A stretch of DNA of 36,957 bases from an uncultured Thermotogae bacterium (GTDB taxonomy: Bacteria; Bipolaricaulota; Bipolaricaulia; UBA7950; UBA9294). The stretch lies in NCBI GenBank assembly GCA_964635895.1, contig CAZWQN010000004.1:1-36957 (forward strand), in the 5' to 3' direction. The position numbers were made by a program, and so were the translations under genes. Position 1 is the stretch's first letter. Every line of letters starts with the position of its first letter. Positions 17,401 to 36,957 of the stretch are shown one piece after another. Below the pieces are notes generated by a model. That model ran no database searches. It saw only the letters and a list, made by a program, of their open reading frames with translations, and had not been told where the DNA came from.

Positions 17401-17671
17401 TCGTCTCGCGGTTGCTCGTCCAGACGATGGACGCGCCGGTCTTCGGGTCCATCAGCTTGACGTCGGTCCAGATCTTGTCCCGCACGTCGCAGTCGATGTT
17501 CTCATCCGGGTCGTACAGGCAGATCCAGACCTCGGTTCCTTCCTGGACATTCGTCACGCGGGTCGCGCCGCCCTTGTCGGACGAGAAGTACATCTCGGCC
17601 GTGGACGCCCCCAGCGGGAGCGCCGCGACGATCAAGGCAACGCCCATCAATCCTAGGCACTTCCGTATCAT
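14447..17671 (-). CDS. large secreted repeat protein with a C-terminal FlgD-Ig / T9SS-type sorting-like domain
   Basis: Signal peptide MIRKCLGLMGVALIVAALPLGAS. Recurrent beta-strand plus acidic motifs: LYDPDENIDCDV, IVDPDENLNCNRVEV, VIDENANADP, LEVTDDDQNEDL, YLDPNDEDD, YTDPTDPTD. The C-terminus AAPNPFPGSVTFAY..VLIYDLNGHLVW..VWDG..NGPYLYVI is typical of FlgD-Ig/Por-secretion tails. Confidence 0.85.
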   Translation of the reverse strand: MIRKCLGLMGVALIVAALPLGASTAEMYFSSDKGGATRVTNVQEGTEVWICLYDPDENIDCDVRDKIWTDVKLMDPKTGASIVWTSNRETIGFKAAHPLNANQNNHVTSVPYKGHYPGNPGSLAGDYFEETGADTGIFVSKRPFQIGTRESFASSEPWKGTHVVDLPTGGAVAGNNHIVAKPLVAEPRSFKWGAYSHVALFTDTKPGDITHGDVLCWVGFQPFNSVAFKSGLVMRDLAFLPLWAGVLPSELDSARTTDLVDYWLIGRFENMDTLIGMVQDQNDETDVAVEMMKIIDTEATITWEGGSSKGNGVVYKDGNEAATITIVDPDENLNCNRVEVVPVFIIVNPGSWNPTNSEDVATSTTGDNATNFCMLKRTGGVDGSYIGTTDRAVMPDGTSGDLSNRPIRWFNIYNAEKNDYGSKGAKDGRYYIQYPKRGVFDLEYHGSLFDTVSANGVTAVSFYARETGTNTGVFELRLNSILVDLGFLSLNVRDVLVAYYLDPNDEDDFKLATAYIGERQHSATSFTDASRQDRDVYWIGRDAIYVQVIDENANADPCCPEQVVVHLCDPHDEDDGEFWILDETSSNSSTFFSSAGMQLLPVWDALGVGLAGLLGGYQLVLDNWKLEVFNEDDVYVRYNDVYYVNNDQGMFGLGDEDTYTAYSGPRIDRIRASNDVSFDLMSIADTQVYDGTTTRMRFLDRNGNAVTGYVNSDCVFLEVTDDDQNEDLFRRERVAGFWDGGQNLPFGPLPLNEFDCIPDRVNTHPVNALLGDTNIFNDSPNPYPNDAYDGAPRVYVLNPRSGRWAALDLLETRVGSGTFMSVICVDLTAVYPCVPTLDVLPGDTIVAFYQDPSNHSDAAMIAIKTSVGGGAPTTPGSSTAFIDSAGNEVTSYTPGDCIRVRVTDVSHALDVSLSDAVTIDGVAYDLTTYGSQSHMFVTDPLELDVAVGDVLTATYTDPTDPTDTSSDTVVIVAGALLVTQFYAAPNPFPGSVTFAYEGSGVATQFSVLIYDLNGHLVWATTQVDATNVVWDGMSDDGEALANGPYLYVITATDGTNTFTPANTPSAKGTVFIDR

Positions 17672-23258: not shown

Positions 23259-24626
23259 TCATCGACGCGCTCCTGAGTTGCGCGCGATCGGGATGGTCAT
23301 GACATCGATCGTCAAGGCGGCGAGAAGGCGAACTGCCAGTCCGAGCGCCCGTTCGTCGAAGTCGAACACGGGGGTGTGTGCGCCGAGCACGCGAGAGCGA
23401 TCGGGGTCGTCCCAGCAAACGCCGTGGAGGTCCGCGCCGATGCCGATGTTTGTCGCCAGGCCCCCGCGGGCCTGAACTCGGCGCATCATCTCCGTGAAGT
23501 CCTCGCTTCCACCCATTCGCTTCACGTCGTGGAAGGTGCACTCCCCCAGTTCGGCGCCGACTTCCTTGACTCGCCCGACCAGCACAGCGTCGCTCGCAGC
23601 GGTCGCCGCTTCGCCCATAGGGCGGACGCGCGCCTCACAGCCGAACATGGCCGCGGAGGATTCGACGACGCGAACGGCGCGCTCGTACATCGAATCGCAT
23701 AGGGCTGACGTTTCCCCGCGCACCTCCGCCACGAGGAGGGCGCGGTCGGGGATGATGTTCCGTGCGGTTCCCGCTTCGAGGCGTCCGACGTTCACCCGCG
23801 TGAACCCGGAGCGGTGACGAGGCAGCGCATGGAGCCCAACGGCGGCGTTGGCCGCCGCCAGGAGTGCATTGCGGCCCTGCTCAGGGGCGCCCCCGGCGTG
23901 GGCCGCCTCGCCTTCAAACGTCACGTCGAACTTGCGGGTCGCCGCGTATCCGCCCATCCCGGCGGCGGTCTCCCCCAGGCCCCATCCACTGAACACGTGG
24001 TGTCCGATGAGAACGTCCGCGTCGTCCAGGTGACCGGCCTCCACGATCGAGCGAGCTCCGCGGACCCCTTCCTCCGCCGGCTGGAAAACCAATTTGACGG
24101 TCCCTCGCAGCGAGCGGCGCAGTTCGGCGAACACGCCGGCCAACCCCAGCCCAACGGCGGCGTGCCCATCGTGTCCGCACGCGTGGCAGCTCCCCGGGTT
24201 CTGTGACGCGAACCCTTCGCGGACCGGGCGGTGAGTGAGCGACTCGCTCTCGATCAGATCGAGGGCGTCGATGTCGAACCGGAGGGCGACCGTCGGACCG
24301 TCTCCGCTCCCGAGCGATGCTACGACCCCCGTGAATCCACCGCGCGCGGCTTCGATGTACTCCGGGTCGCCGCCTTGAGCGATCGCCCGGGCGCTGTGCT
24401 TCTCGAGGACCTCCTCCGGGGGTACGCCCATTCGCGCGTCGGCCGCGCAGACGCTCCGCCCCGCGAGGACCTCGAAGCCGAGCTCCTTGAGGCGACGCGC
24501 GATTCTCGACGACGTCCGGAACTCGGTCCAGCCGGACTCGGGGTACCGATGGAAGTCCCGGCGATCCGTCACCAGACGCTCCGCGGACGTGGCTCGCTCG
24601 ATGGATTGAATGAGGTCGCGGTTCAC
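23259..24626 (-). CDS. M20-family amidohydrolase/carboxypeptidase (M20D, hippurate-hydrolase/AbgA-like)
   Basis: SCHACGHDGH, FQPAEEG and the dimerisation insert are characteristic of M20D amidohydrolases. GTG 24626 lies 7 nt after the M29 stop. Confidence 0.85.
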   Translation of the reverse strand: MNRDLIQSIERATSAERLVTDRRDFHRYPESGWTEFRTSSRIARRLKELGFEVLAGRSVCAADARMGVPPEEVLEKHSARAIAQGGDPEYIEAARGGFTGVVASLGSGDGPTVALRFDIDALDLIESESLTHRPVREGFASQNPGSCHACGHDGHAAVGLGLAGVFAELRRSLRGTVKLVFQPAEEGVRGARSIVEAGHLDDADVLIGHHVFSGWGLGETAAGMGGYAATRKFDVTFEGEAAHAGGAPEQGRNALLAAANAAVGLHALPRHRSGFTRVNVGRLEAGTARNIIPDRALLVAEVRGETSALCDSMYERAVRVVESSAAMFGCEARVRPMGEAATAASDAVLVGRVKEVGAELGECTFHDVKRMGGSEDFTEMMRRVQARGGLATNIGIGADLHGVCWDDPDRSRVLGAHTPVFDFDERALGLAVRLLAALTIDVMTIPIARNSGARR

Positions 24627-24633
24627 GGTGCGT

Positions 24634-25743
24634 TCACTCGCCGATCAGGAACCGGCCGCTGTCGTAGATCAGTGTGTCGTCCACGTGAATCCGGCCGCCC
24701 TTCGTCAGATCGCAGACGATGTCCCAGTGGATCGCCGACTCGTTCCGACTCCCGGTCTCGGGCATTCCTGCGCCAAGCGCCATGTGGAAGCTGCCGTTGA
24801 TCTTCTCGTCGAACAGCGTGTTTCCTGTCGCTCGTGTGATCCCCCGGTTCGTGCCCACGGCGAACTCCCCCACATAGCGCGCCCCCGCGTCGACGTCGAG
24901 CGTTTTCTGGAGGAACTCCTCCCCCGTGTCGGCCTCGGCTCGAACGACCTTGCCCTTCTCGAACCAGAGTCGAACTCCGTCGACCTTCCGCCCTTGGTAC
25001 ACCGTCGGGTACGAGAACCGGACGTGCCCCTCGACGCTGTCCTCCACGGGCCCTGTGAAGATCTCCCCGTCCGGCATGTTGTTCTTGCCGTCGCAGTTCT
25101 TGAACGTTCGTCCCGCGATCGTCATGCGCAGATCGACGTCCGGACCCTCGACGCGAAGCTTCTTCTTCCCGTCGAGCCAGTTGACGAGCTTCTGCTGCCA
25201 GATCGAGAGCTTCTTCCAAACCGCGACCGGATCCTCGAGGTCCGGCAGGCACGCGCCGTACACGAAGTCCTCGTACTCATGGAGCCCCATCTCGGCGTCC
25301 TGCGCGTAGGCTTCCGTTGGGTACAGCGTGCCGACCCATCGGAGTTCCTGCGTGGCCACTCGCTGCATGAACGTTCGGAAGATGTCCTTCGTCGCCTGGT
25401 TCGACAAGACGAGCTTCTCCGGGGGAACGCTCGTCAGGGACTTCGTGTTGTCGGAACTCCAGAAGGTGATCATCGCGTCGTACGACTCGTAGATGACGCG
25501 GGTGGGTTCGGGAACGTGGCGGAGCTGCGCGTCCGAGGCGTGCCGGAAGACGAGTTCGTCCAGGTCGGGGACCGTCATTCGCGTGTAGGGGTGTCCGCCC
25601 GATCGGAGAACCTCTACGACGACCGCCTTGATGAGCGGGATCGCCGTGGGTCCCCCCTGAATGAACACGGTGTCGTTCGGCCGGACGCCGACCGAGTATC
25701 GGACCAACACCTCGGCCAACTTGGCGATGCGAGGGTCGAACAT
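24634..25743 (-). CDS. M29-family aminopeptidase (AmpS/PepS/aminopeptidase T-like)
   Basis: MFDPRIAKLAEVLVRYSVGV..GD, NMPDGEIFTGP, EFAVGTN, DEKINGSFHMALG and HWDIV are M29 blocks. ATG 25743 has GGAGGAGG seven nt upstream. Confidence 0.85.
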   Translation of the reverse strand: MFDPRIAKLAEVLVRYSVGVRPNDTVFIQGGPTAIPLIKAVVVEVLRSGGHPYTRMTVPDLDELVFRHASDAQLRHVPEPTRVIYESYDAMITFWSSDNTKSLTSVPPEKLVLSNQATKDIFRTFMQRVATQELRWVGTLYPTEAYAQDAEMGLHEYEDFVYGACLPDLEDPVAVWKKLSIWQQKLVNWLDGKKKLRVEGPDVDLRMTIAGRTFKNCDGKNNMPDGEIFTGPVEDSVEGHVRFSYPTVYQGRKVDGVRLWFEKGKVVRAEADTGEEFLQKTLDVDAGARYVGEFAVGTNRGITRATGNTLFDEKINGSFHMALGAGMPETGSRNESAIHWDIVCDLTKGGRIHVDDTLIYDSGRFLIGE

Positions 25744-25830
25744 CGGATTGCCTCCTCCGAGCAGGTGCCGGGCTTCTTCCGCCCGATCAGACCTCCTTGA
25801 CGGTATCGGGTCACGTCTCCCTAAACAAGA

Positions 25831-26607
25831 TCAAACCTCTGCAAGAGAGAGGTCCCGCGCCGTGGATACCCGCACGCCTTCTGGGAGAACGGCGATGCGT
25901 CGTCGTCCGCCTCCATACGCTCGCGATGTGAAGATCGTCAAGCAGCGGTCTCCGAACAAGTACGTCGGAGCATCCGGCTGGTGCGATCGGACCAGCACGG
26001 GCACGCCCAAGCGGCGAGACCGCTCCTCGAACGTGGCCGCACCGTACGTCGGGCGCCCCGTGACCGTGATGGGTGCCTCCGCGTGGGCGTCGCTTCGCCA
26101 GTCGCCCCATGTGATGTCCCGCCACTCCGGAGAGCCAAGCTCGACATCCTCGATGGCGTCGAGGCATGGCAGATCGGGGAGCGCGCCATGGAGAGCCAGG
26201 ACGCCCGCGGGGTGCCACGCGGCGAAGGGAAGCCGAGGGAGAACTCGGTCGAGCGCCGCCTCCTCGTCCGGGGCCAGGCTCTCCCAGAAATCGGCCGGCG
26301 AGAACCTCGCCACGCTCCACGCCTCGTGGTTCCCCATCAGGAGGATCGTCCGCTCGGGATCTGCAGACACTGCGGCGAGAATTCGTCCCAGGTTCTCTCT
26401 CGATCGCGGACCGCGGTCAACCGAGTCCCCGAGGAAGACGATGGCCGTGTCCGGCGCGGAGAACCGCCGGAGAACCTCCTCGGTCGCGTTGAGATCCCCG
26501 TGCGTGTCTCCGACGAACACCGCCCGTCGATCCGGACGAAGTCGGACCACCCGGCGCTGCGCGCGGAGCACAGGCTCCGCCGCGCGAAGGACTTCGAGGA
26601 ACTCCAG
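25831..26607 (-). CDS. PPP-type metallophosphoesterase (Ser/Thr phosphatase-like); start unresolved
   Basis: GDTHGD, GDSVDRG and GNHE motifs. The only ATG (26775) would overlap mscL by 131 nt. Candidate non-ATG starts are CTG 26607 (after GGAGAAGGGAG) and GTG 26571. Confidence 0.75.
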   Translation of the reverse strand: MEFLEVLRAAEPVLRAQRRVVRLRPDRRAVFVGDTHGDLNATEEVLRRFSAPDTAIVFLGDSVDRGPRSRENLGRILAAVSADPERTILLMGNHEAWSVARFSPADFWESLAPDEEAALDRVLPRLPFAAWHPAGVLALHGALPDLPCLDAIEDVELGSPEWRDITWGDWRSDAHAEAPITVTGRPTYGAATFEERSRRLGVPVLVRSHQPDAPTYLFGDRCLTIFTSRAYGGGRRRIAVLPEGVRVSTARDLSLAEV

Positions 26608-26644
26608 CGTCGCTCCCTTCTCCGGTCTCCTGTTCCTGAGTGAG

Positions 26645-27082
26645 CTACACCTCCGACGTGCAGTGAGGACACCGCGTGGCGGCGAGCGGGATCTGCGTCC
26701 GGCAGCGCGGGCACTCCTTCGTCGTCGGCGCCGCCGTCTCGGCCTTCTTCTGCATTCGGCTGAACACGCGGACAAGGAGGAACATGACCCACGCGACGAT
26801 CAGGAATGTGATCAAGGTGTTGATGAATGCGCCGTAGTAGATCGCCGCAGCGCCCGCCTCACGCGCGGCGGCCGCGGACTCATACGTTTCACCGGACAGG
26901 ACAACGTAGAGGTTCGCGAAGTCTACGTTCCCGATCAGCTTGCCGATGATGGGCATGATGAGATCATCGACGAACGACTTCACCATGGTCGCGAACGCCG
27001 CGCCCATGACGAAGGCGATGGCCAACTGAAGCAGGTTCCCCTTGGTGATGAACTCCCTGAACTCCTTTCGCACCTCGGTCAC
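26645..27082 (-). CDS. mscL: large-conductance mechanosensitive channel MscL with a C-terminal zinc-ribbon extension
   Basis: FREFITKGNLLQLAIAFVMGAAF..DLIMPIIG..INTLITFLIVAWVMFLLV matches the canonical MscL layout. The tail reads KECPRCRTQIPLAATRCPHCTSEV (CxxC-x10-CxxC). Confidence 0.85.
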   Translation of the reverse strand: MTEVRKEFREFITKGNLLQLAIAFVMGAAFATMVKSFVDDLIMPIIGKLIGNVDFANLYVVLSGETYESAAAAREAGAAAIYYGAFINTLITFLIVAWVMFLLVRVFSRMQKKAETAAPTTKECPRCRTQIPLAATRCPHCTSEV

Positions 27083-27533
27083 CTCCGTGTCTTGCTTCGC
27101 TCATCGTAGTCGGAACGAGCGGGCGGGAGAAGGCGCGCTGCCGGCCGCGAACGACTGGAGCCGACAGGCAGTCCGTGGCGCGCTCCCTTGCCTTTCCCAT
27201 GGCACAGGTCACAGGGGGACAGAGGGCTGTTGCGGGTTCGACGCTCTCCGGCGCCCTCCTCGGACCGTTCTCCCTGCGGACCTGACCACGACGATGAACT
27301 GGCCTGCGGGCTCGCTGGCGGCGTCGAACGCTCCGGCGAGGATCTCGGCGTGATCCGCGTCGTGTCGGCGTGGTCTGCCTCAGGGCGGGCTCAGTTGTCG
27401 ATGAGCGAGCCTCGTTTGTGGCGGGGGGGAGGGAAGAGACTGGGCCGGAGTCGGCGAGGCGCGGAGGCGGTGATGCGGGTGACAACGGGGTCGGAAGGTT
27501 GTCTGCATTACACGCAACCCGTGACCTTTCTCG

Positions 27534-27539
27534 TATAAT
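27534..27539 (+). promoter_or_regulatory. consensus -10 box TATAAT placed 6 nt before an ATG (leaderless-mRNA geometry)
   Basis: TATAAT at 27534-27539, ggggcc, then ATG at 27546. No SD is possible in that space. The -35 region is weak (CACGCA at 17-nt spacing). Confidence 0.4.
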
Positions 27540-27545
27540 GGGGCC

Positions 27546-27980
27546 ATGGCCACGTTGGATGAAGTGGCGCGCTTCCTCGGGCTCTCGAAGCGCGCTGTGC
27601 GGTTGAGGGTCGACGCTCTCGGCGAAACCCTCCAGAGGTATCTCACTCGAGGAGAGCGAAACCGGCTGATCTTCCGTGGGGAAGCCGTGGCCATCCTGCG
27701 CCGTCTCGAGGAGTTGCGTCGAGAAGAGGGGCTTCCGATCCGCCAGGCGGCCGATCGGCTGCGGGGCGAGTTGGGCGACGACGAGACCACGTCCGGGATC
27801 TGTATCGTCCTTCGCCCCGAGGTGGAGTTCGCTCTCGCTCACGAGCTGCTGCAGGAGGCGACTCGCGAGCGCGACCAGTGGCGGGAGTACGCAACAGCCC
27901 TCCAGTCGGTTCTTCCTCCCGAGCTCAAGTGGCTGAACTCCGTCTCGCCGGCGACGTCCGGCGACCGGCGGATGAACTAG
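27546..27980 (+). CDS. HTH DNA-binding protein (MerR/excisionase-like), hypothetical
   Basis: MATLDEVARFLGLSKRAVRLRVDALG is an HTH-like N-terminus, followed by a coiled-coil-like remainder. 144-aa ORF. Confidence 0.55.
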   Translation: MATLDEVARFLGLSKRAVRLRVDALGETLQRYLTRGERNRLIFRGEAVAILRRLEELRREEGLPIRQAADRLRGELGDDETTSGICIVLRPEVEFALAHELLQEATRERDQWREYATALQSVLPPELKWLNSVSPATSGDRRMN

Positions 27981-28008
27981 CCATCCCCGGGCTTGATCCG
28001 GCGCGCCC

Positions 28009-31000
28009 CTACTCGCCCTCCGGATCGGGGAGGTCTTCCCGAGATAGGAACCGAGGGAGAATCCGTCCCTGCGCCCCGAGTGGCAGGCGGTCCCCGGGCT
28101 TCGCATCCGCCCACGTTCCCTCCGCCCCCGCGCCTCTTGGCAGGTTCACCAGAGCAATCGGCGTTCCTGGAGGAAGCGTCCCCGGGTCGCTCTCCGCGAG
28201 GGCCATTCCGACCTGAAGCCCTCCCAGACTCACGCAGCTCGTCACTCGGCCGAGAACTGCTCCGTTCCTGTCGAGCACGAGTGCCCCGTCGCGCACGGGG
28301 CGGGCTCCCTCGTCGACCTGGAAACGGACGATCGATCGCTTCGCTCCGTCCGTGTAGAGCCGCCGGCACGTCGAGCGGCCGACGAAGAACGCCTTGTGGA
28401 GCTTGATGTACGACCCGAAGCCGGCCTCGTACGGGTTCACTCCATGGGGCCCTGCCAGTTCGTGTCCGTACAGCGGGAGTCCGGCCTCTGTTCGGGTCGA
28501 GTCTCGTGACGCCAACCCGCACGGCAGGAGGCCGAGCGGCCGACCGGCGTCAAGCAGGCGGCTCCACAGCCATGCGGCGTCGGGAGCGGCGGAGTAGATC
28601 TCGTAGCCCGTGGGCTCCCCCGTGTAGCCCGTTCGGGCCACCAGGAGCTGGTGCCCCTCCGCGACAACCTCGGCGAACTGTGTCCGGTCGAGCGACGCGA
28701 TCGCTCGGCGCTCCTGCGGTGCCAGGACGAGGTTGAGGATTTGGTGGCTCCTCGGTCCCTGAAGGGCCACGTCGACGACGCCGCGCTCCTTCTTGAGGTC
28801 GCGGATCGTGACCTGCGGGCCGGGGCGGCAAGACGGGTGGTCGCGGTCGATGAGGTAGGTCCCTGCATTGACGCCGCACAGCCAGTCCCAGTCCTTCTGC
28901 TCGTTGGCGGCGTTCACCACGACGAGGAATCGGTTTCTTGCCCGGCGGTACACCATGATGTCGTCGATCACCCCTCCGTCGGGGTCGAACAGGTAGGCGT
29001 ACTGCGATTGCCCGATCTCGAGCCATCCCGCGTAGTTCGACGAGACCGCATTGAGGAAGTCCACGGCGTGCTCGCCCTCCACTTGGAACACGCCCATGTG
29101 CCCGAGATCGAACAGGCCGGCGGCCTTGCGCACGGCCGCGTGTTCTTCAAGCGCCGACGTGTACCAGACGGGCATTTCCCAGCCGGCGAACGCCACGAGC
29201 CTCGCCCCGAGGGCCGCGTGGGCGTCATAGAGAGGCGTCCTTCGCAGGGGTTCTTGGGCCGGCGCCCACCGGAACTCCGCTGGGGGTGCGGCGGGAACCG
29301 GCGCCGGGAGGCGATCCCTGCCGACGAAGTACGGTTTCTCCGGCGCAAAGCGATCCGGATGCCTGGAGAAGATCTCGCGGATGTCCTTGCCCGCGGCATC
29401 TTCGCCCGGCGCGGCCGGCTTCCATGCCCGGGCCGCCGGGGGCAAAGCGCTCGTTGCCGCCTCCTCGATGACGGCGGGTCCCTGAACCTTCCGCAGGACG
29501 TCCACCGGGTCGAAGAGCGCGTAGCCGTCGGCCAGCCCGGTCAGCCATTCCCTGACGGCGCGTGCGTTCTCTGCCGGCGCGTAGAGGAGGTAGTCGTCGC
29601 GGCCGAGCGACCCGGCGATCACGTTCGACACGGCTTGTCCGTTCTCGTCGAACAAGTACGCATGGGCCGCCGCTCCGGAGGGGAGGGCGAACAGGTCGAC
29701 CGTCAGGCTCTCTTGCAGGAGGGCGCCGGCGCGGCCGCCGCGGATCCGAATCGCACACCATGTTCCGTCGTTCGTCGCCGGGCGAGCGTCTCTCGGCGCA
29801 CCTCCCACCCGAGGGTCGACCCGGCCGATGAGTTCTCTCACGTCGCGTTTCGCCGCCTCGAGCACGGGCAGCGGGACCTTCCCCCGCGAGGACTCGCCGC
29901 GCAGCCCGCAGTACGAGAAAGGGCGGATGGCCTTTAGAACATCGGCGATGATCTTGGCTAGGGCTCGCATGTCCCCCTCGCCCATTCCGCGTTGCGTCAC
30001 CCATGGCGTTCCGAGGCGGATCCCGTGGGCATCCGCCGCGCTGCGATCGCCGGGGAGGGTGTTCTTGTTGCAGACGATCCCGGCGAGGTCCAGGATGCGC
30101 GCCGCGATCTCCCCCATCATCACGAACCCGGTGCCGCTCGGGAGCGGCTTCAGGTCAACGAGGAGAAGGTGGGTGTCGGTTCCTCCGTAGGCGAGAGTGA
30201 GTCCGTGGGCCTCGAGCGCCTTGGCCAGAGCCTTCGCGTTCTCGACGATGCGGCGCTGCAGCGCCGCGAACTCCGGCTGCTGGGCCAGTTTGAGAGCCAC
30301 GGCCAGAGCGGCGAACTTGTTCACGTGGGGTCCGCCCTGCTGGCCGGGGAAGATCGACGAGTCGAGCTTCGCGGCGATGGCCGGGTCGGTGGACAGGAGC
30401 ACCGCGCCCCGTCCACCACACAGGGTCTTATGGGTCGTGAACGACACCACGTGGGCGTGGTCGATCGGGTTCGGGTAGACCCCTCCGACGATCAGGCCGG
30501 CCGTGTGGGCGACATCGGCGAGCAGAATGGCCCCGACCGCGTCGGCGATTTCGCGGAACTTCCTCCAATCAGCCTGCCACGGGTACGACGTGAATCCGCC
30601 GATGATCATCCGCGGTCGATGCTCCTCGGCGAGACGACGGATCTGGTCGTAGTCCAGCTTTCCTGTCGCCGGATCCACCGCGTACGAGACGATCCGGTAG
30701 CGGCGGCCCGTGACGTTGAACTCGGATCCGTGGGTGAGGTGGCCGCCCTCGGTGAGGGCCATGCCCATCACCGTTTCTCCCGGCGCGACGAACGCCTCGT
30801 ACACGGCCAGATTTGCGGCGGCGCCGGAGAGCGCCTGGACGTTCACGTAGATCCTTTCAGCGGGAACGTCGGGAGTCGCGAAGCACTCCGCGGCGCGTCG
30901 GGCGGCGAGCGACTCGACAAGGTCCGCGATCTCCACGCCTTTGTAGAAGCGGCGGTCGGCGTAGCGTCGATAGTTCGCGAGTTGCAGGTCGATGTCCGCG

Positions 31001-31221
31001 AGCTGCTCGACGGTTCCTCTCATCATCGCCTTGCGGGGATACCCCTCGGCGTACACGCTCGTGAACGCCGAGCCGAGGGCCTCTCGAACCGAGGCGGGCG
31101 TCAAGGACTCGGACGGGATCAAGATGATCTTCTCCCGTTGGCGACGCTCCTCGGCGGCGATGAGCGCCGCCGTCTGAGCGTCCACGTCAAGCACGCGCTG
31201 GTTGAGTTGAGATGGGCTCAT
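28009..31221 (-). CDS. fusion protein: serine hydroxymethyltransferase (N-terminal ~440 aa), a partial GcvT-like module, and a full aminomethyltransferase (glycine-cleavage T protein, C-terminal ~410 aa)
   Basis: SHMT blocks: LIPSESL, VYAEGYP, NVQALSGAAAN, GGHLTHGS and VVSFTTHKTLCGGRGA, with the PLP Lys codon at 30427-30429. GcvT blocks: RTPLYDAHAALGARLVAFAGWEMPVWY, GLFDLGHMGVFQVEG, YAYLFDPDGGVIDDIMVY, LVARTGYTGEPGYEI-like, ASRDSTRTEAGLPLYGHEL. It is one uninterrupted 1070-codon frame. AGGAG lies five nt before the ATG at 31221. Confidence 0.85.
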   Translation of the reverse strand: MSPSQLNQRVLDVDAQTAALIAAEERRQREKIILIPSESLTPASVREALGSAFTSVYAEGYPRKAMMRGTVEQLADIDLQLANYRRYADRRFYKGVEIADLVESLAARRAAECFATPDVPAERIYVNVQALSGAAANLAVYEAFVAPGETVMGMALTEGGHLTHGSEFNVTGRRYRIVSYAVDPATGKLDYDQIRRLAEEHRPRMIIGGFTSYPWQADWRKFREIADAVGAILLADVAHTAGLIVGGVYPNPIDHAHVVSFTTHKTLCGGRGAVLLSTDPAIAAKLDSSIFPGQQGGPHVNKFAALAVALKLAQQPEFAALQRRIVENAKALAKALEAHGLTLAYGGTDTHLLLVDLKPLPSGTGFVMMGEIAARILDLAGIVCNKNTLPGDRSAADAHGIRLGTPWVTQRGMGEGDMRALAKIIADVLKAIRPFSYCGLRGESSRGKVPLPVLEAAKRDVRELIGRVDPRVGGAPRDARPATNDGTWCAIRIRGGRAGALLQESLTVDLFALPSGAAAHAYLFDENGQAVSNVIAGSLGRDDYLLYAPAENARAVREWLTGLADGYALFDPVDVLRKVQGPAVIEEAATSALPPAARAWKPAAPGEDAAGKDIREIFSRHPDRFAPEKPYFVGRDRLPAPVPAAPPAEFRWAPAQEPLRRTPLYDAHAALGARLVAFAGWEMPVWYTSALEEHAAVRKAAGLFDLGHMGVFQVEGEHAVDFLNAVSSNYAGWLEIGQSQYAYLFDPDGGVIDDIMVYRRARNRFLVVVNAANEQKDWDWLCGVNAGTYLIDRDHPSCRPGPQVTIRDLKKERGVVDVALQGPRSHQILNLVLAPQERRAIASLDRTQFAEVVAEGHQLLVARTGYTGEPTGYEIYSAAPDAAWLWSRLLDAGRPLGLLPCGLASRDSTRTEAGLPLYGHELAGPHGVNPYEAGFGSYIKLHKAFFVGRSTCRRLYTDGAKRSIVRFQVDEGARPVRDGALVLDRNGAVLGRVTSCVSLGGLQVGMALAESDPGTLPPGTPIALVNLPRGAGAEGTWADAKPGDRLPLGAQGRILPRFLSREDLPDPEGE

Positions 31222-32357
31222 GGTCGCTCCTTTTCACCGCCGAACGGATCCGGGTGAAGTCTACGGACTACGTTTCGCGCTTTCCAGCAGGCTTCTGCCG
31301 CGAGGTAGAGCCCTCCGCTGACGAGGCTGTGCCCGCCGAGGACGACGGGGACGCGGCACTGGATCGCCGCCTCGGTGAAGCTCCGCCAGACGGGGTCGTC
31401 GACTTCATCGAGCAGGAAGAGGTCGCTCGCGAAGCGCTCCTTCGGCGGAGGCAGGACGCCGCCGAAGGAAAGGAGCGGTCGCGTGTCGATCCATGCGGCG
31501 TCGGCGGCCTCCTCGAGGCGGTGGAAGAACCGCTCCGCTCCGTCCTCGAGGAGTGTCCGCCGCACCCAAGGTATGTGGCGGGACGCCGACGCGCGCATCC
31601 CGCGGCCCTCCACGAGGGCACTCGTCCGACAGGCGACTTCTTGCTCGAAGTGGCTCCACGTCGTCGGGTTCACGCGTCCGACAAGCATCGTCGACGCCGA
31701 GCGGTCGGCGAGCACGGCCAGCGCCCGGTCTATGGACGGATGACTCCATGGGCGGCCCTCGAGGAAGCGGCGAAGCCCTGCGTGTCCGCGGTCGGTGCGC
31801 GCGAGCAGGTGAACGTCGGACGGCGTATCGATGTCGAACTGCGTCGACGCCGAGCGGGGCATCGACAGGCAGCGAATCCCGGCGTCGGAAAGGGCGAACC
31901 CGAGCGGATTATCTGCGGCGGGGAGGTTCAGTTTGACCAGGCGCTTCGCATCGGTGAAGGCGGCGAAGTCGCAGGAGTAGAAGTTGTTGAAGACGGCCGA
32001 CCCTGAGCTGGCCTGAGCAAACACGATCAGACTGCGGATCTCCTCGTCCGAAAGGAGGCCGCCGCTTCCGCTGCCGAAGTACAGGAGGCCCTCGACATCG
32101 AGGTCGAGGATCAAGCGCTGAAGCGCGCGCCCAAAGTGAAAGGACGCCTCCTCGGCGTCCGGCGAGGTGCGCACTTTCGCGTCAAAGGCCCCTTCTTGAA
32201 CCACCTCCGCGGTCGTCACGACGATCGGATCGAGGCCGCACGCGTTCAGGCGGGAGCATAGATCTCGGGTCGACGCCCGCCGGGCTTCCTCTACGATGCG
32301 TTCGCCGGGACTCACGCCGACCGGAGCGTGGAACACAAGAGCCGTGACGCGTCTCAT
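31218..32357 (-). CDS. hypothetical protein; the N-terminal half weakly resembles a MobA/CofC/DUF2064-type (GT-A-like) nucleotidyltransferase fold
   Basis: ATG 32357 has GGAGGT three nt upstream and overlaps the helicase TGA (ATGA). Its own TGA overlaps the fusion ATG (ATGA at 31218-31221). Motifs LLYFGSGSGGLLSDEEI and FDIDTPSDV recall NTP-transferase-fold proteins. The C-terminal ~170 aa are unassigned. Confidence 0.65.
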   Translation of the reverse strand: MRRVTALVFHAPVGVSPGERIVEEARRASTRDLCSRLNACGLDPIVVTTAEVVQEGAFDAKVRTSPDAEEASFHFGRALQRLILDLDVEGLLYFGSGSGGLLSDEEIRSLIVFAQASSGSAVFNNFYSCDFAAFTDAKRLVKLNLPAADNPLGFALSDAGIRCLSMPRSASTQFDIDTPSDVHLLARTDRGHAGLRRFLEGRPWSHPSIDRALAVLADRSASTMLVGRVNPTTWSHFEQEVACRTSALVEGRGMRASASRHIPWVRRTLLEDGAERFFHRLEEAADAAWIDTRPLLSFGGVLPPPKERFASDLFLLDEVDDPVWRSFTEAAIQCRVPVVLGGHSLVSGGLYLAAEACWKARNVVRRLHPDPFGGEKERP

Positions 32358-34576
32358 CGGACCTCCCCTCGGTTCGCATCGGCCAACAGGGCAAGGATGC
32401 GCATCGCCCCCGACTTCGACAACGGCTGGTTCTGGCTCCCACAGCGGGGGGAGAGCAGGCACGCCGGGCACCCTGCCTCGCACGGACACCGCGAGACCAT
32501 ATCGTGCGCGGCCGCCGCGAGGCGAGACCATTCCTCGAACAGCACCTCCGCCAAGCCGGCGCCGTCTTCGATGGCGTCGAAGAGAAGGACCGTCGGCGCC
32601 CCGATCTGGGGATGGAGAGGCATGGATGCGCCGGCGATATCGGCGGCGTCGCACAAGACGAGAAGCGGAGCCATCGAGATCAGCGCGTGTTCGGCTCCGT
32701 GCAGGGCTCCCAGGAGATCGACTGCGGCGGTTTCCGGCGGGAGGTCCCGAAACGCTGCCCACAGCCCGTCGCTCTCGTAGGTGTGTGGCGGAAGCGCGAG
32801 CGGATGGAGCGACACGCTACGATCGTTGTGGACTGACGTGTAACCGACGAACGACTCGGTCACGCGAACCCGGCCGTACGCGACCTGCGCTGTTCCCGAG
32901 AGGACCGCTGGCTCCGCGCTGACGATCTCGACCGTGCTGGCTCGGAGCCCCTGCGTCGAGTAGTCGACATCCTCGCGGGCTGCAGTCGCCACTCCCTCTT
33001 CCAGGTCGAGCGCATGGACGACGTACGTCTCTCCGCGGTGGAGGAGAACGGCGCCCGGATAGGCGTCGCGGCGCGCACGAACCGGATCCATCGTCTCGAT
33101 CGTTCGTCCGTCACACACCAGCCGCACGGTCTCGCCGGCCATCTCTTCGAGGGGGAACGCTTCGTGAGCGCGGCGCAGCCCGCGGTAGATGTATCCGGAC
33201 GGTGTGCCGGCCAGAAGTCGGCCGTCGCGCAGCGTCTCCACCGCCTCCCTGTCCGACTCGTCGATCTCATTCTCCCCAAGGGGAAGCTCGGCCGCGGCAC
33301 AGGCAAGGTGCCCCGCGCGTTGACGGAGCGTTCGGCGCGGCAGCACCAGCCGCTCGCCGGTGTGGGCGAGGAAGCGCTCCGGATCGCGCAGGAAGTACCG
33401 ATCGAGGGGGTCTTCGTACGGGATGTACACGATTAACGAGGGTCGGGAGCCCCGCCCCGCGCGGCCCGCCTGCTGCCATGCGGAGAGAAGGCTTCCTGGA
33501 AACCCGACAAGAATCGCCGCGTCGAGTCCGCCGATGTCGATGCCCGACTCGAGAGCCGACGTCGAAACGACGCCACGCAAGCGACCCTCGCGGAGGTCGG
33601 CCTCAAGCGCTCTTCGAGCTTCCGGGAGGTAGCCGGCACGGTAGGCCTGAATCGTCTCCGTCGCGGACATCTTCCGCGCCAGGCTCGCCACTCGCTCTGC
33701 CATGACGCGCGATCGTGCGAAGCAGATTGTCTGCGCCCCCTGTTCCGTGAGGAACGAGAGCAGCGTCGCCGCTTGACGAGTCGTCGACGAGGTCGGATCA
33801 GCCAGCGGATCCCAGAACACGACGCTCCGCGGTCCCCGCGCGGACGCATCGTGGTCGACCGGGATCGCGTCCCGTCCCGTGAGGGAACGGGCGAACTCGC
33901 CGGGGTTTGCGATCGAGGCCGACGAGACGATGAACCGCGGGTGGGCGCCGTAATGCTCGAGGATGCGCGACAAGCGGGACAGAAGCTGCGCGACGTTCCC
34001 GCCCATCACGCCTCGGTAGTGGTGAGCTTCGTCGAGTACAACAAGCTTGAGGTTGGCGAAGATGCGGGCCCATTGGCTGTGCCAGGGAAGGTACTGGTGA
34101 AGCGCGTGGGGGTTTGTCAGGATGACGCGGGCGGAGCGCCGGATCCAGGCCTTCTTCTGCGGCGGCGTGTCGCCGTCGTACGTGCTAGGCCGAAGGTCCG
34201 TGCCGCACGCCTCATCGAGGGCGCGGAGCTTTTCCAGCTGGTCGTTGGCCAGTGCCTTGAGTGGGTAGAGGTAGAGGGCCGTCGCACTCGGATCCTCGCT
34301 CAGCCATTCGAGGGTGGGAACTTGGAAGGCGAGGGTCTTTCCCGATGCCGTGGCGGTCGTAAGGACGACGTCACGCCCCGCGCGCAACGCTTCGATCGCT
34401 TCGACCTGATGCCGATAGAGGCGCACTCCGCGCTCGTGGAGCGTTGCCGCCAGCTCCGGGCGCAGCGTGACGTCTCGATACGCCGGCGCGTGAGCCGGGA
34501 GGGAGGCTGCATGGACGACCTGACCCCGGTAGCGGGGATCTTGATCCAACGCGGTCAGAAACGCATCAAGTCGCAT
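32354..34576 (-). CDS. DEAH-box helicase with a C-terminal DUF1998-type four-Cys module (MrfA/YprA-like)
   Basis: LTTATASGKT (Walker A), VVLDEAHHYRG (DEAH), SSASIANP, a helicase C-domain (..GIDIGGLDAAILVGFPGS..QQAGRAGR), and the C-terminal SRCPCEAGCPACLLSPRCG. ATG 34576 has GAGGGGG upstream. The track ORF start at 34867 is an upstream extension. Confidence 0.85.
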   Translation of the reverse strand: MRLDAFLTALDQDPRYRGQVVHAASLPAHAPAYRDVTLRPELAATLHERGVRLYRHQVEAIEALRAGRDVVLTTATASGKTLAFQVPTLEWLSEDPSATALYLYPLKALANDQLEKLRALDEACGTDLRPSTYDGDTPPQKKAWIRRSARVILTNPHALHQYLPWHSQWARIFANLKLVVLDEAHHYRGVMGGNVAQLLSRLSRILEHYGAHPRFIVSSASIANPGEFARSLTGRDAIPVDHDASARGPRSVVFWDPLADPTSSTTRQAATLLSFLTEQGAQTICFARSRVMAERVASLARKMSATETIQAYRAGYLPEARRALEADLREGRLRGVVSTSALESGIDIGGLDAAILVGFPGSLLSAWQQAGRAGRGSRPSLIVYIPYEDPLDRYFLRDPERFLAHTGERLVLPRRTLRQRAGHLACAAAELPLGENEIDESDREAVETLRDGRLLAGTPSGYIYRGLRRAHEAFPLEEMAGETVRLVCDGRTIETMDPVRARRDAYPGAVLLHRGETYVVHALDLEEGVATAAREDVDYSTQGLRASTVEIVSAEPAVLSGTAQVAYGRVRVTESFVGYTSVHNDRSVSLHPLALPPHTYESDGLWAAFRDLPPETAAVDLLGALHGAEHALISMAPLLVLCDAADIAGASMPLHPQIGAPTVLLFDAIEDGAGLAEVLFEEWSRLAAAAHDMVSRCPCEAGCPACLLSPRCGSQNQPLSKSGAMRILALLADANRGEVR

Positions 34577-35555
34577 CGGGCCCCCTCGGCAGCAGGGCGC
34601 GGAGAAGCCGCGCGAGGTTGACGACATCCTGCCGGTTGTGGTCAAGGATCGGTCGGAGGGGCGCTGGGCTTCCAGTCTCCAGGTACATCGAGTAGAACTG
34701 CGGGACGAGCGAGCCCGGCAGGTCGCTCGCGCGGCGAACACCGAGCACCTTCTCTTCGACGGTTCCGAGGTGAGCGTCCGGAAGAACACCCGCGAATTGC
34801 CGGCGGACGTGGTGGAGAAGGTCTGCGTGGATCCCGACCGGCGGGAGATTCCTCCCGTAGTAGGCACATCGTTGTCGCAGGAGGCTCCAGTCGAACGCCT
34901 TCCCGTTGTACGACACGAGGGCGGTGGCTCCCTTGAGCTCGCGGGTGAAGCGCGCGAGAAGGGCGTCTTCCCCGGCGAGCGACGGCGCGAGGAACTGACG
35001 AACGGTCAGGGTGCGGTCCCCGAGCCGTGCTGTCGCGATCAGAAAGATGGGGGCGTTCGACAGCCCCAGCGTCTCGAGGTCGAAGAAGAGAACGCGCTCG
35101 CGCGGAACGAATCCCAGAGCGGCGAGGAGTCGTGGGTCTGAAGCAGGCAGCCACGTTTCGAGAGTGGCGAGGACGGCCTCGACGTCCCACGCTGTGCCCC
35201 ACTCGGCGAGAAGCGCGCGTGCGCTCTCTCCCCATCGCGGGTGAGCGGCGAGGTCGGCGAGCGTCTCGTAGCCCTGTTGGCGGAGCTGTTCCCGGCGGCA
35301 CGTTCCGATGCCGTACAGCAGATCGAGCATGCGCTCCACGCTCGCACGAAGGTGGTCCATCGGTGGGAAGCGGAGCTCGAAGGACTCCTCGGACTCGAAC
35401 GTAAGAACGTCGTGGAATCCATGTTCTCGAGTTCCGGAATCGAAGAGCGCGTCGGTCGTCTCGTCCAGCGAACCGGGAAGGCCTGCGGTCTCCTGGGCGG
35501 GTTCTCTGGGAGTCGCTCGGCCGGCGAGCCATCCTGCAAGCCGGTCGTTCCTCAT
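34566..35555 (-). CDS. RNase-H-fold (DEDD-type) exonuclease, YprB/MrfB-like, with an N-terminal HhH-like segment
   Basis: LFFDLETLGL (D-x-E), SYNGKAFDWSLL, HADLLH and HNRQDVVNL. The HhH-like segment is LLYGIGTCRREQLRQQGYETLADLA. The stop overlaps the helicase start by 11 nt. Confidence 0.75.
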   Translation of the reverse strand: MRNDRLAGWLAGRATPREPAQETAGLPGSLDETTDALFDSGTREHGFHDVLTFESEESFELRFPPMDHLRASVERMLDLLYGIGTCRREQLRQQGYETLADLAAHPRWGESARALLAEWGTAWDVEAVLATLETWLPASDPRLLAALGFVPRERVLFFDLETLGLSNAPIFLIATARLGDRTLTVRQFLAPSLAGEDALLARFTRELKGATALVSYNGKAFDWSLLRQRCAYYGRNLPPVGIHADLLHHVRRQFAGVLPDAHLGTVEEKVLGVRRASDLPGSLVPQFYSMYLETGSPAPLRPILDHNRQDVVNLARLLRALLPRGPDAT

Positions 35556-35592
35556 GGGAAGCGGCGCGCGCGGAGGGCGGCCCGCTTGGGCC

Positions 35593-35829
35593 TCAGCGAC
35601 GGACCTTCATCGCTTCTCTCTCCCCCACGTAGGGGAGCAGAGCGAGCTTTCGGGCGCGGTTGATCTCTACGGCCAGGCGCCGCTGATGCTTCGCACACAG
35701 GCGTGTGGCCCTCTTGGGCAGGATTTTGCCGAGCCGATTCATGTACTGCTTCAGCTCTTCGGGCTTCTTGTAGTCCAGGCTGACCTGGTTCTCGCACGCA
35801 CGACACTTTCGTCTTCGCTTGTGGAACAT
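35593..35829 (-). CDS. rpsR: 30S ribosomal protein S18
   Basis: CRACENQVSLDYKKPEELKQYMNRLGKILPKRATRLCAKHQRRLAVEINRARKLALLPY is canonical S18. Confidence 0.95.
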   Translation of the reverse strand: MFHKRRRKCRACENQVSLDYKKPEELKQYMNRLGKILPKRATRLCAKHQRRLAVEINRARKLALLPYVGEREAMKVRR

Positions 35830-35832
35830 AAC

Positions 35833-36252
35833 CTAGAAAGGAACCTCCTCCTCAGGCGGCTGACCTTCGTCACTCGTCGCCGGCGCGGTGACCGTGCCCG
35901 CCTCATCGCTCGATCGTGCCGGCCCGCCGAGGAATTGAACGGTTGACGCCACGACCTCGGTGATCTTGACCCGCTCGCCTTCCGCGTTCTCGAATGAATC
36001 GATTCGTAGACGACCCTCAACAGCGACAGATCGTCCTTTCCGTAGGTAGTTGGCGCAGTTCTCCGCCTGCGAGCCCCACGTTACGATCGGGACGAACGTG
36101 ACCTCCTCTTGGAGCTGCCCCGAGGCGTCCTTGTACTGCCGGTTGATCGCAATGGCAAACCGCGCCCGAGCCGTCCCGCCCGGGGTATACCGCAACTCAG
36201 GGTCCCCCGTGAGGTTTCCGATCAAGATGACGCGGTTCAGACTCGCAGCCAT
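35833..36252 (-). CDS. ssb: single-stranded DNA-binding protein
   Basis: LNRVILIGNLTGDPELRYTPGG..VTWG..AENCANYLRKGRSVAVEGRL forms the OB fold. A Gly/Pro/acidic linker leads to the C-terminal tip EEEVPF. Confidence 0.95.
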   Translation of the reverse strand: MAASLNRVILIGNLTGDPELRYTPGGTARARFAIAINRQYKDASGQLQEEVTFVPIVTWGSQAENCANYLRKGRSVAVEGRLRIDSFENAEGERVKITEVVASTVQFLGGPARSSDEAGTVTAPATSDEGQPPEEEVPF

Positions 36253-36258
36253 AGTCCT

Positions 36259-36543
36259 CTAGTTCTTCACCACGATCTGGTAGCGAAGCAGCTCTTCGTC
36301 AATGTTCAGTCGGTCTTGGATGGACTTCACGGCGGCGGGTGGAAGGCGGAACTCCGTAAAGCCGTAGACCCCGTCCGTGAAATGGCGAATCTCATACGCC
36401 AAGACGCGCCGTCCCCACTCCTCGGTCTTCACGAGGTCTCCGCCGCTTTCCGTAATCAGCGATTGGATTCTCCCGACCTTCGCCGCGCGCTGTTCGTCCG
36501 TCAGGTCCGGCCGAATCACGTAGACAATCTCGTACTCTCGCAC
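36259..36543 (-). CDS. rpsF: 30S ribosomal protein S6 (GTG start)
   Basis: REYEIVYVIRPDL..WGRRVLAYEI. GTG at 36543 with GAGGTG five nt upstream. Confidence 0.9.
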   Translation of the reverse strand: MREYEIVYVIRPDLTDEQRAAKVGRIQSLITESGGDLVKTEEWGRRVLAYEIRHFTDGVYGFTEFRLPPAAVKSIQDRLNIDEELLRYQIVVKN

Positions 36544-36786
36544 TCTGACACCTCTCAGTTGGTCTTCGGGAAACTGTATCGCTGCCTCACGGGGAAGTCA
36601 AACTGCGGCGGGGCGCGGGGTTTGGCGCTCTAGCCCCCTTGGGGGAAACGGCGGCGCCCCGGCCGTCTCCTCTCGATCGGCCCCCGGTGGGCCGGTCGAG
36701 CGCCCGGCTGCCGAAGGATCCGGCCCGGAGGTGACCGGCGTCCTTGGGCAGAATGCTGAGGGTTGACGTATATCTAATATGCAAAG

Positions 36787-36815
36787 TTGATGAAAGAAGC
36801 ATGGATGGTTATTCT
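36787..36815 (+). promoter_or_regulatory. candidate promoter TTGATG, 17-nt spacer, TATTCT within an AT-rich island (divergent region)
   Basis: TTGATG at 36787-36792 and TATTCT at 36810-36815. It is followed by the hairpin GCGGGGG-cgag-CCCCCGC (36828-36845) and the start at 36876. Confidence 0.35.
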
Positions 36816-36875
36816 ATATCCTCGGTGGCGGGGGCGAGCCCCCGCGGGCGGAATACTAGAGGTGAGGAGGTAGCG

Positions 36876-36957
36876 ATGAAGTGGGGCGGGTTCAACAAGA
36901 AGGGGGAGGAGAAGATGAAGAAGCTACTGGGCGGGAAGGCGGCGTTCTACCTGGTGT
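36876..36957 (+). CDS. hypothetical protein, N-terminal fragment (runs off the window)
   Basis: GAGGAGG lies upstream of ATG 36876. An in-frame second ATG at 36915 is also preceded by GGGGGAGGAG, giving MKKLLGGKAAFYLV, which is signal/TM-like. Confidence 0.45.
   Translation, partial: MKWGGFNKKGEEKMKKLLGGKAAFYLV

Follow-up and report, generated by a model that had tools for sequence, protein, structure and literature searches.

What brings a ribosomal-protein operon, a DNA-repair pair, a protein without a family and a folate enzyme together in one tightly packed string of genes? The question is raised by the window analyzed here, a stretch of 36,957 nucleotides (nt) of Candidatus Bipolaricaulota DNA (contig CAZWQN010000004.1, G+C content about 66%), in which seven genes follow each other on the minus strand in the order rpsF, ssb, rpsR, exonuclease, helicase, orphan and a fusion of serine hydroxymethyltransferase (SHMT, GlyA) with GcvT, the T-protein of glycine cleavage. 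An initial annotation had suggested that the last four genes could act as a one-carbon-dependent module of DNA modification or repair, with mere operon compaction as the fallback. The comparative analysis leads to a different answer: the string is probably a composite of three separable units, in which the orphan and the gcvT-containing gene form a functional one-carbon unit, and the exonuclease-helicase pair of MrfB and MrfA type (MrfBA) is a dispensable neighbor.

The four genes in question encode a 329-residue (aa) MrfB/YprB-like DEDDh 3'-5' exonuclease (34566..35555, minus strand as are all genes of the string; Pfam RNase_H_2, E 4.8e-35), a 740-aa MrfA/YprA-like superfamily 2 (SF2) helicase (32354..34576; Pfam DEAD, Helicase_C and MZB, i.e., DUF1998), the 379-aa orphan (31218..32357; no Pfam match) and the 1070-aa SHMT-GcvT fusion (28009..31221; Pfam SHMT and GCV_T, plus GCV_T_C). 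Their coordinates and junctions, when read in the sequence, were all as first annotated. The rpsR stop codon ends at 35593 and the exonuclease ATG lies at 35555, leaving a gap of 37 nt (35556..35592, minus strand) in which inspection revealed no terminator. The exonuclease TGA (34568-34566) falls into an 11-nt overlap with the helicase gene, which starts with an ATG at 34576, and ATGA overlaps join the helicase to the orphan (32357-32354) and the orphan to the fusion (31221-31218). The longest open reading frames (ORFs) would give proteins of 837 aa (helicase) and 514 aa (orphan); the shorter starts are preferred because the alignment of the helicase to MrfA from the PDB begins at residue 39 and because the orphan homologues all begin at the same methionine. 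Shine-Dalgarno (SD) sites precede the helicase (GAGGGGG), the orphan (GGGGAGG) and the fusion (AAGGAG), whereas none was seen before the exonuclease ATG (gcgccgcttcccATG); the earlier statement that each downstream start has its own SD site thus holds for the former three and not for the exonuclease. The absence of internal promoters and terminators was borne out. The sole sigma-70-like match of the region is located about 30 nt upstream of rpsF (36573..36601, minus strand; TTGACT-17-TACAGT, 9/12, a consensus match only) and is a candidate promoter for the whole string, while five terminator-like matches inside the string equal the shuffle expectation (4.9), every one of them within coding sequence. 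A 4-nt overlap by itself is commonplace; conservation of the overlap is not.

Conservation was followed in 62 species-level Bipolaricaulota loci from GTDB and 11 further loci from exact-protein look-ups (loci are cited by L numbers where they need to be told apart). Of the 58 informative Bipolaricaulota GTDB loci, 57 have the orphan and then the fusion, both on one strand. An ATGA joins the two in 41 of 71 related loci; in the others the spacing ranges from -41 to +17 nt, and AAGGAG is conserved upstream in all 71. rpsF-ssb-rpsR lies upstream of orphan and fusion in nearly all loci, the exception being the complete chromosome CP070725 (L069), in which orphan and fusion are located elsewhere without rps genes. 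Of 56 species, 27 have the exonuclease-helicase pair and 29 lack it; the pair is scattered over the orphan tree, and helicase and orphan share an ATGA in 24 of the 28 loci having the pair. Synteny and translational coupling of all four genes extend to 27 related species, and the proposed module does not fail for want of synteny. Where the pair is absent, rpsR and the orphan are separated by 117-491 nt (median 160 nt), and a strong hairpin with a T-tract follows rpsR in 18 of the 29 loci. As a strong terminator is usually found after rpsR in these species, orphan and fusion look like a transcription unit of their own there. Where the pair is present, a hairpin with T-tract was matched in only two of 23 loci, in both about 170-180 nt past rpsR and probably inside the exonuclease gene.

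A lineage-specific insertion of MrfBA was considered and rejected, given the patchy distribution of the pair, its co-divergence with the orphan and a remnant in L034. The spacer of this locus keeps part of the helicase C-terminus (residues 704-732, E 2e-6), and a deletion is therefore documented there. Pairwise identities of helicase and orphan are correlated with r = 0.95, which fits vertical co-divergence rather than repeated insertion; the corresponding value for orphan and SHMT is 0.93. Judged by these comparisons, the pair is old at this position, has been inherited vertically and has been lost repeatedly. In another related locus (L061, ~7550-8000), the 5' end of the orphan gene is repeated in tandem within the spacer and a stretch of N comes after it, which probably reflects faulty assembly of this metagenome-assembled genome.

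The coupling of orphan and gcvT extends beyond the phylum. The next-best GTDB matches to the orphan belong to Anaerolineae/Chloroflexota (37-41% identity), and in nine of 15 other informative GTDB loci, from Anaerolineae/Chloroflexota and divergent Acetothermia, a glyA::gcvT fusion comes next after the orphan. In Anaerolineae, gcvH and gcvPA/PB come after the fusion and alr often stands before the orphan; gcvH/gcvP also directly follow the orthologous fusion in metagenome loci. An independent metagenome sample of 80 diverse loci showed the adjacency in 30 of 48 informative loci, comprising 29 fusions or SHMT matches and one stand-alone gcvT. In L136 (6857-7954), the order is alr, orphan and a stand-alone gcvT of 365 aa with both GCV_T and GCV_T_C of Pfam, and the same order was found in L129, there by tblastn only. 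As the orphan precedes a stand-alone gcvT in these loci, its partner is the T-protein and not the fusion as such. In L096, a Chloroflexota-type contig, the fusion still comes after the orphan although a toxin-antitoxin pair of DUF433/DUF5615 (PIN-like) type has entered the space between them (10254-10864). Over all samples, orphan and a gcvT-containing gene are adjacent in 97 of 126 informative loci. That the association survives fusion, fission, insertions and relocation across phyla argues for a functional link between orphan and gcvT. The one-carbon context agrees with published genome interpretations: Candidatus Bipolaricaulis has been predicted to use the glycine cleavage system together with the tetrahydrofolate (THF) pathway for degrading serine and glycine to formate (PMC6092417), and the Limnochordia group 'Darwinibacteriales', which carries orphan homologues, to combine a reverse Wood-Ljungdahl pathway with glycine cleavage (PMC12663870).

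These distributions are difficult to reconcile with a joint action of exonuclease, helicase, orphan and SHMT-GcvT in a one-carbon-dependent pathway of DNA or nucleotide modification or repair. In its favor, the four genes are syntenic and coupled by overlaps in 27 species and helicase and orphan have diverged together. In addition, the genes immediately preceding the orphan in an Anaerolineae clade (L080 1595-3820, L086, L091) and in the metagenome loci L127 and L130 are one for an MrfB-like exonuclease with RNase_H_2 and TPR domains and, after it, fpg, in each case without a helicase; fpg also occurs near the orphan in L074 and L112. However, 29 of 56 species have kept orphan and fusion without the pair, often behind a terminator of their own. 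No MrfA helicase was detected adjoining the orphan in Anaerolineae/Chloroflexota or Limnochordia loci, nor in those loci of other phyla in which orphan and fusion are joined to gcvH/gcvP or the orphan to a stand-alone gcvT, and the metagenome sample contained only three helicase matches, with rpsR or the Bipolaricaulota layout. Pfam and NCBIfam also gave no DNA- or nucleotide-modifying domain using 5,10-methylene-THF (CH2-THF) in any of the four proteins, and DNA-repair genes often ride in ribosomal-protein operons, e.g., rpmBG-mutM in E. coli. A four-gene pathway thus appears unlikely. A softer version, in which adduct repair would be co-expressed as protection with the main source of CH2-THF, MrfBA repairing the damage from formaldehyde equivalents released by one-carbon flux, has at best the same small chance of being correct. 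The idea of a repair/one-carbon module is not supported, and the locus is not a new DNA-repair system. As the link between MrfBA and orphan is limited to about half of one phylum, we read MrfBA as a passenger.

What kind of unit do orphan and fusion form? The assignment of the latter to SHMT plus GcvT was confirmed by scores above the curated cutoffs. The GlyA part (29821..31221, minus strand) matches Pfam SHMT with E 2.2e-119 and NCBIfam PRK00011 with 434 bits against a cutoff of 335; its pyridoxal phosphate-binding lysine is K265 in TTHKT. The GcvT part (28009..29232, minus strand, including the stop codon) comprises GCV_T at residues 664-936 (Pfam E 2.9e-82) and GCV_T_C at residues 962-1016, and exceeds the NCBIfam cutoffs for GcvT PRK00389 (NF001567; 317.5 vs. 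300 bits) and TIGR00528 (263.9 vs. 235.85). GCV_T_C remains below the Pfam cutoff of 25.9, with 18.2 in the fusion of the window and 24.4, just below, in an Anaerolineae fusion. Between the two parts, the 'linker' contains a partial, degenerate extra GCV_T (residues 490-568; 29518..29754, minus strand), which matches positions 50-128 of the Pfam profile (E 1e-8, 35 bits). A fusion of this kind is biochemically sensible, as THF and CH2-THF form a pool on which its two halves both draw. gcvH/gcvP did not turn up in the annotated parts of the window, i.e., the string, the adjoining genes and about ten of the largest other ORFs. When the surroundings of the orphan in the window and in 16 loci were searched for a glycine riboswitch or any other Rfam family, only unrelated tRNAs were identified. 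Literature searches revealed no description of a GlyA-(half GcvT)-GcvT fusion, of the orphan family or of their conserved coupling.

The orphan belongs to a large family. About 500 close homologues, all of 370-390 aa, were found, all of them without a protein name, the nearest named source being Candidatus Bipolaricaulis. An exhaustive search (E <= 1e-3) yielded 549 clusters at 50% identity, and relatives occur in 535 stretches of GTDB representative genomes, taken as about 535 species. The protein of the window had no Pfam match at E <= 0.01 and no NCBIfam match at E <= 1. Scans of 10, then 50, then 10 more family members gave no Pfam model above threshold, and a CofC-type model was absent from the first 10 and from the 50 at E <= 1 and E <= 10; sporadic sub-threshold matches to CTP_transf_3, DUF2064 and NTP_transf_3 occurred in a handful of the 50-odd members scanned. 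Comparison with PADLOC and with PDB sequences gave none either, the PDB profile matches to integrin and OhrR at E ~0.1 being noise. Conserved motifs of the family are FHFG, YFGSGSG, NNFYSCDF, DN, QFDIDTP, GR, EGRGMRA, DTRPLL, RFASDL and LGGHSLVSGG.

The predicted structure was more informative. An AlphaFold2 model from a 31-sequence alignment reached a mean local confidence (pLDDT) of 88.8 and a predicted template modelling (TM) score of 0.89. A Foldseek search of the PDB with this model returned as top matches CofC (2i5e, E 3.8e-8), FbiD (6bwg/6bwh), 3-phosphoglycerate guanylyltransferase (7p97) and a DUF2064 protein (3cgx), followed by KdsB, GlmU and IspD, all over the first ~210 residues. 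For 2i5e, 6bwg/6bwh and 7p97, the probability was 1.0 over ~210 aligned columns, with target TM scores of 0.64-0.71 and identities of 13-17%; for 6bwg/6bwh, 7p97 and 3cgx the target TM scores were 0.57-0.71. The suspected likeness of the orphan to nucleotidyltransferases is therefore upheld at the level of the fold: residues 1-210 (31728..32357, minus strand) form an N-terminal domain with the CofC/FbiD-like GT-A nucleotidyltransferase fold, in which N124, N125, S128, D130, D149, N150, D175 and D177 are invariant throughout the family. Residues 212-379 (31221..31724, minus strand) form an alpha/beta C-terminal domain which, modeled separately, reached a pLDDT of 84.8; it contains the invariants G227, R228, E250, R252, D291, R293, D312 and G341 and the near-invariant R308, G342 and H343. 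The best Foldseek matches of the C-domain (E 8.7e-3, TM <= 0.4; carbamoyltransferase, type II dehydroquinase and lumazine synthase alpha/beta folds) were rejected as a relationship. In FbiD, the phosphate of phosphoenolpyruvate is bound via two Mg2+ held by D116, D188 and D190 (PMC6450877). The orphan family has D130 (or D149) and D175-x-D177 as invariants in the same order, and these aspartates may represent a retained metal/phosphate site. A few long homologues of ~440-460 aa (P0208, P0173, P0375) carry a C-terminal TrkA_C (RCK_C) ligand-binding domain, which hints at small-molecule regulation of these proteins.

From these data we propose the following organization. The three units would probably be read here from one promoter upstream of rpsF. 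The first, rpsF-ssb-rpsR, would be an ordinary ribosomal-protein/SSB operon. The second, the mrfB-mrfA DNA-adduct repair pair, would already have been at this position early in Bipolaricaulia, co-diverged with its neighbors and been deleted in about half of the species; it would be co-expressed with orphan and fusion in the window and not mechanistically required by them. The third would consist of the orphan, translationally coupled to the GlyA-(partial GcvT)-GcvT fusion, and would serve serine/glycine cleavage or synthesis, the SHMT step converting serine and THF to glycine and CH2-THF and the GcvT step converting the aminomethyl group bound to H-protein and THF to CH2-THF and NH3. The operon form of other phyla, (alr)-orphan-glyA::gcvT-gcvH-gcvPA-gcvPB or, in some loci, the orphan followed by a stand-alone gcvT, speaks for such a unit. 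The orphan may be a Mg2+-dependent enzyme of nucleotidyl or phosphoryl transfer, in which a phosphate-bearing small molecule would be bound at the three-aspartate site of the N-domain and the pocket completed by the arginine-rich C-domain; T-protein and SHMT might thereby be provided, for example, with a phosphorylated metabolite or pterin carrier that the orphan makes, tailors or recycles. This guess is based on the fold, on the aspartate and arginine invariants, on occasional kinase or sugar-phosphate neighbors and on the automatic labels 'MocA / CofC family' given to the family by JGI. Still more tentatively, and with considerable doubt, the orphan may found an unrecognized enzyme family, a CofC/MobA-fold transferase that acts stoichiometrically with the GlyA-GcvT fusion. 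In Bipolaricaulota, Chloroflexota and probably Limnochordia, it would then fill a gap in the one-carbon metabolism of serine and glycine, where it would make, tailor or recycle such a metabolite or carrier.

Several observations weigh against the proposed organization. In three Bacillota loci of Limnochordia type (L092-L094), hpf precedes and secA follows the orphan, which lies after hpf in a Chloroflexota locus (L095) and beside hpf, a PfkB kinase gene or rpiA in several metagenome loci, in all cases with no gcvT nearby; the link between orphan and glycine cleavage is thus frequent, not universal. The conserved ATGA between helicase and orphan and the MrfB-like exonuclease and fpg upstream of the orphan elsewhere make a looser functional tie to DNA repair possible. 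Co-transcription from a single promoter is deduced from gene spacing. With regard to the orphan, the three aspartates were matched to those of FbiD by motif order and not by superposition. CofC usually has an N-terminal basic motif for nucleoside triphosphate (NTP) binding, P-x-K...K-[ST]-R-L, and the orphan has in its place a Gly/Ser-rich loop with an invariant Glu; as the basic NTP-binding loop is replaced, the orphan may not be a nucleotidyltransferase at all.

The loci without gcvT also bear on the possibility of pure operon compaction, by which the orphan would be an unrelated housekeeping gene that has simply inherited its place next to glyA::gcvT without any functional link. Besides the placement near hpf and secA, the varied company of the orphan fits this explanation, with the order hpf-PfkB kinase-orphan, rpiA overlapping the orphan start, and the orphan preceding rplM in divergent Acetothermia. 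However, the adjacency persists in at least two phyla even though orphan identity has dropped to 30-40%, survives the toxin-antitoxin insertion in L096, the relocation of orphan and fusion in L069 and the change from fused to unfused gcvT in L136, and is seen in 97 of 126 informative loci. We therefore consider compaction improbable as a full explanation, if less so than the four-gene pathway. As the fallback offered by the initial annotation, it was nearer the truth than the module and overlooked that orphan and gcvT are a strongly conserved unit.

For the dispensable neighbor of this one-carbon unit, the annotation as MrfA/MrfB-like was confirmed. The helicase matches B. subtilis YprA/MrfA (PDB 6znp, E 5.3e-125) end to end, with residues 39-708 aligned to 42-731. 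It contains DEAD (Pfam E 1.1e-30) and Helicase_C (E 1.7e-13) domains, a Walker A motif (TATASGKT), a DEAH box (VVLDEAHH) and the C-terminal cysteine cluster of MZB (DUF1998; E 1.3e-20, full-length 1-80/80; RCPCEAGCPACLLSPRC; RCPCEAGCPAC...RC); it remains below the cutoff of NCBIfam TIGR03817 (668 vs. 874 bits). The exonuclease matches the core of MrfB (PDB 8un9, E 4.5e-30), its homology to relatives begins at residues 1-6, and the DEDDh motifs are intact, i.e., FFDLET (DxE), YNGKAFDW (D) and DHNRQD (H-x4-D). Exonuclease and helicase are hence MrfB/MrfA homologues and a predicted DNA-adduct repair pair. Might they rather be an anti-phage defense module? The PADLOC models SngC, BrxH, DruE and DpdF match the helicase (E 1e-39 to 1e-20), and the YprA family has branches in both repair and defense (bioRxiv 10.1101/2025.09.15.676423). 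However, these matches are limited to the generic SF2 core. Over its full length the helicase is most similar to B. subtilis MrfA, it is paired with MrfB, and helicases associated with MrfB are assigned to the repair branch in the same study. In addition, exonuclease, orphan and fusion gave no PADLOC match, system-specific partners as in DISARM, Dpd or Druantia were not found next to the helicase, and the pair is inherited vertically within a housekeeping locus. A defense function is therefore highly improbable.

The first unit comprises rpsF for ribosomal protein S6 (36259..36543, minus strand; Pfam Ribosomal_S6, E 7.5e-27), ssb (35833..36252, minus strand; Pfam SSB, E 1.5e-34), whose translation ends in an acidic C-terminal tip, ...PPEEEVPF, and rpsR for ribosomal protein S18 (35593..35829, minus strand; Pfam Ribosomal_S18, E 1e-20). 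Divergent from rpsF, relatives carry two to four tandem copies of a gene for 45-47 aa (MKWGGFNRKAEEKVRKLLGAKAACYLVSLAMLGLLLCESFKWRPG; e.g., L007 4845-5308), whose product, apparently a small protein in which the C-terminal segment is hydrophobic, was assigned to no family. Of the first copy, the window (36877-36957, plus strand) still includes the start, preceded by an AT-rich stretch (about 36760-36830); the remainder lies beyond the end of the window. Near the orphan in Bipolaricaulota, and likewise divergent from rpsF, a pair of genes encodes an HD_5/HD-domain protein and a DUF5317 protein (L001 6197-8061, L003, L007, L011); the pair also occurs downstream of the orphan in a Limnochordales genome (L094 5130-7116), which reflects either a second cross-phylum neighborhood or old gene order.

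At its other end, the string is bounded by a convergent gene for a helix-turn-helix (HTH)-like protein of 144 aa (27546..27980, plus strand; weak MerR/HTH matches), 28 nt from the fusion stop. Of 44 related loci, 25 have this gene in the corresponding place with 62-94% identity, a conservation exceeding that of the orphan, and its product could be a local regulator. A 380-aa ORF at 26964-28106 was rejected as spurious, as it has no family match and overlaps the conserved HTH and MscL genes. Downstream (23259-27082, minus strand) follow MscL, Metallophos, Peptidase_M29 and Peptidase_M20 genes. As this order is kept in relatives, the window is a typical segment of a Bipolaricaulota chromosome. 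A 1074-aa protein at 14447-17671 (minus strand) has only C-terminal sorting-type matches (FlgD_ig, CHU_C, Por_Secre_tail), which is unusual for the phylum.

MrfAB, GlyA, GcvT and the rps operon are known already; new is the orphan as an unassigned extra component of a glycine-cleavage/SHMT operon. For anaerobes in which the breakdown or synthesis of glycine and serine runs via folate, glycine cleavage and SHMT are of central importance, as in the reductive glycine pathway and in syntrophic acetate oxidation in digesters, and the component list of glycine cleavage (T, H, P and L proteins) is held to be complete. A conserved, translationally coupled extra gene before gcvT in hundreds of uncultured species suggests an overlooked accessory step, and the gcvT behind it is itself joined to glyA through a spare GcvT half-domain. 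The orphan provides a clonable target of ~1.1 kb for assigning a function to a large family of 'hypothetical proteins' and a sound starting point for work on the one-carbon biochemistry of uncultured anaerobes. MrfBA, in turn, is as tightly coupled here as orphan and fusion and yet demonstrably dispensable, which calls for caution when function is concluded from gene overlap alone.

How does the string compare with the systems known for each of its parts? With the rpsF-(priB/ssb)-rpsR-rplI operon it shares the order rpsF-ssb-rpsR, tight spacing and the acidic EEEVPF tip of SSB. rplI usually comes after rpsR; in the window and the relatives examined, its place is taken either by mrfBA or by a terminator with orphan and fusion behind it. 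The repair pair resembles MrfA/MrfB (YprA/YprB) of B. subtilis in full-length helicase similarity, DEAH box, MZB cysteine cluster, DEDDh exonuclease and in its adjacent, overlapping genes. It differs in that the exonuclease gene comes first, in being wedged between rpsR and the one-carbon unit with an overlap to the next gene, and in being dispensable in half of the related species; its role in adduct repair is predicted.

The closest known counterpart of the one-carbon unit is the canonical gcvT-gcvH-gcvP operon with a separate glyA, as in E. coli and B. subtilis. Both the SHMT and the GcvT part score above the curated cutoffs, and the Anaerolineae fusion with gcvH and gcvPA/PB behind it is arranged like the canonical operon. 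In contrast to the latter, glyA and gcvT are joined here via the extra partial GCV_T domain, and the orphan heads the operon. The orphan, finally, shares with CofC/FbiD and the MobA-like nucleotidyltransferases the GT-A fold of its N-domain, and its D...DxD arrangement resembles the Mg2+ site of FbiD in motif order. Unlike CofC/FbiD, it has no membership in a Pfam or NCBIfam family; no cofD, cofE, fbiC or other F420 gene was found among its annotated neighbors, as checked in source Pfam tables and by scans of recurrent neighbor clusters. It carries instead an additional conserved C-domain of 170 aa and keeps the company of gcvT.

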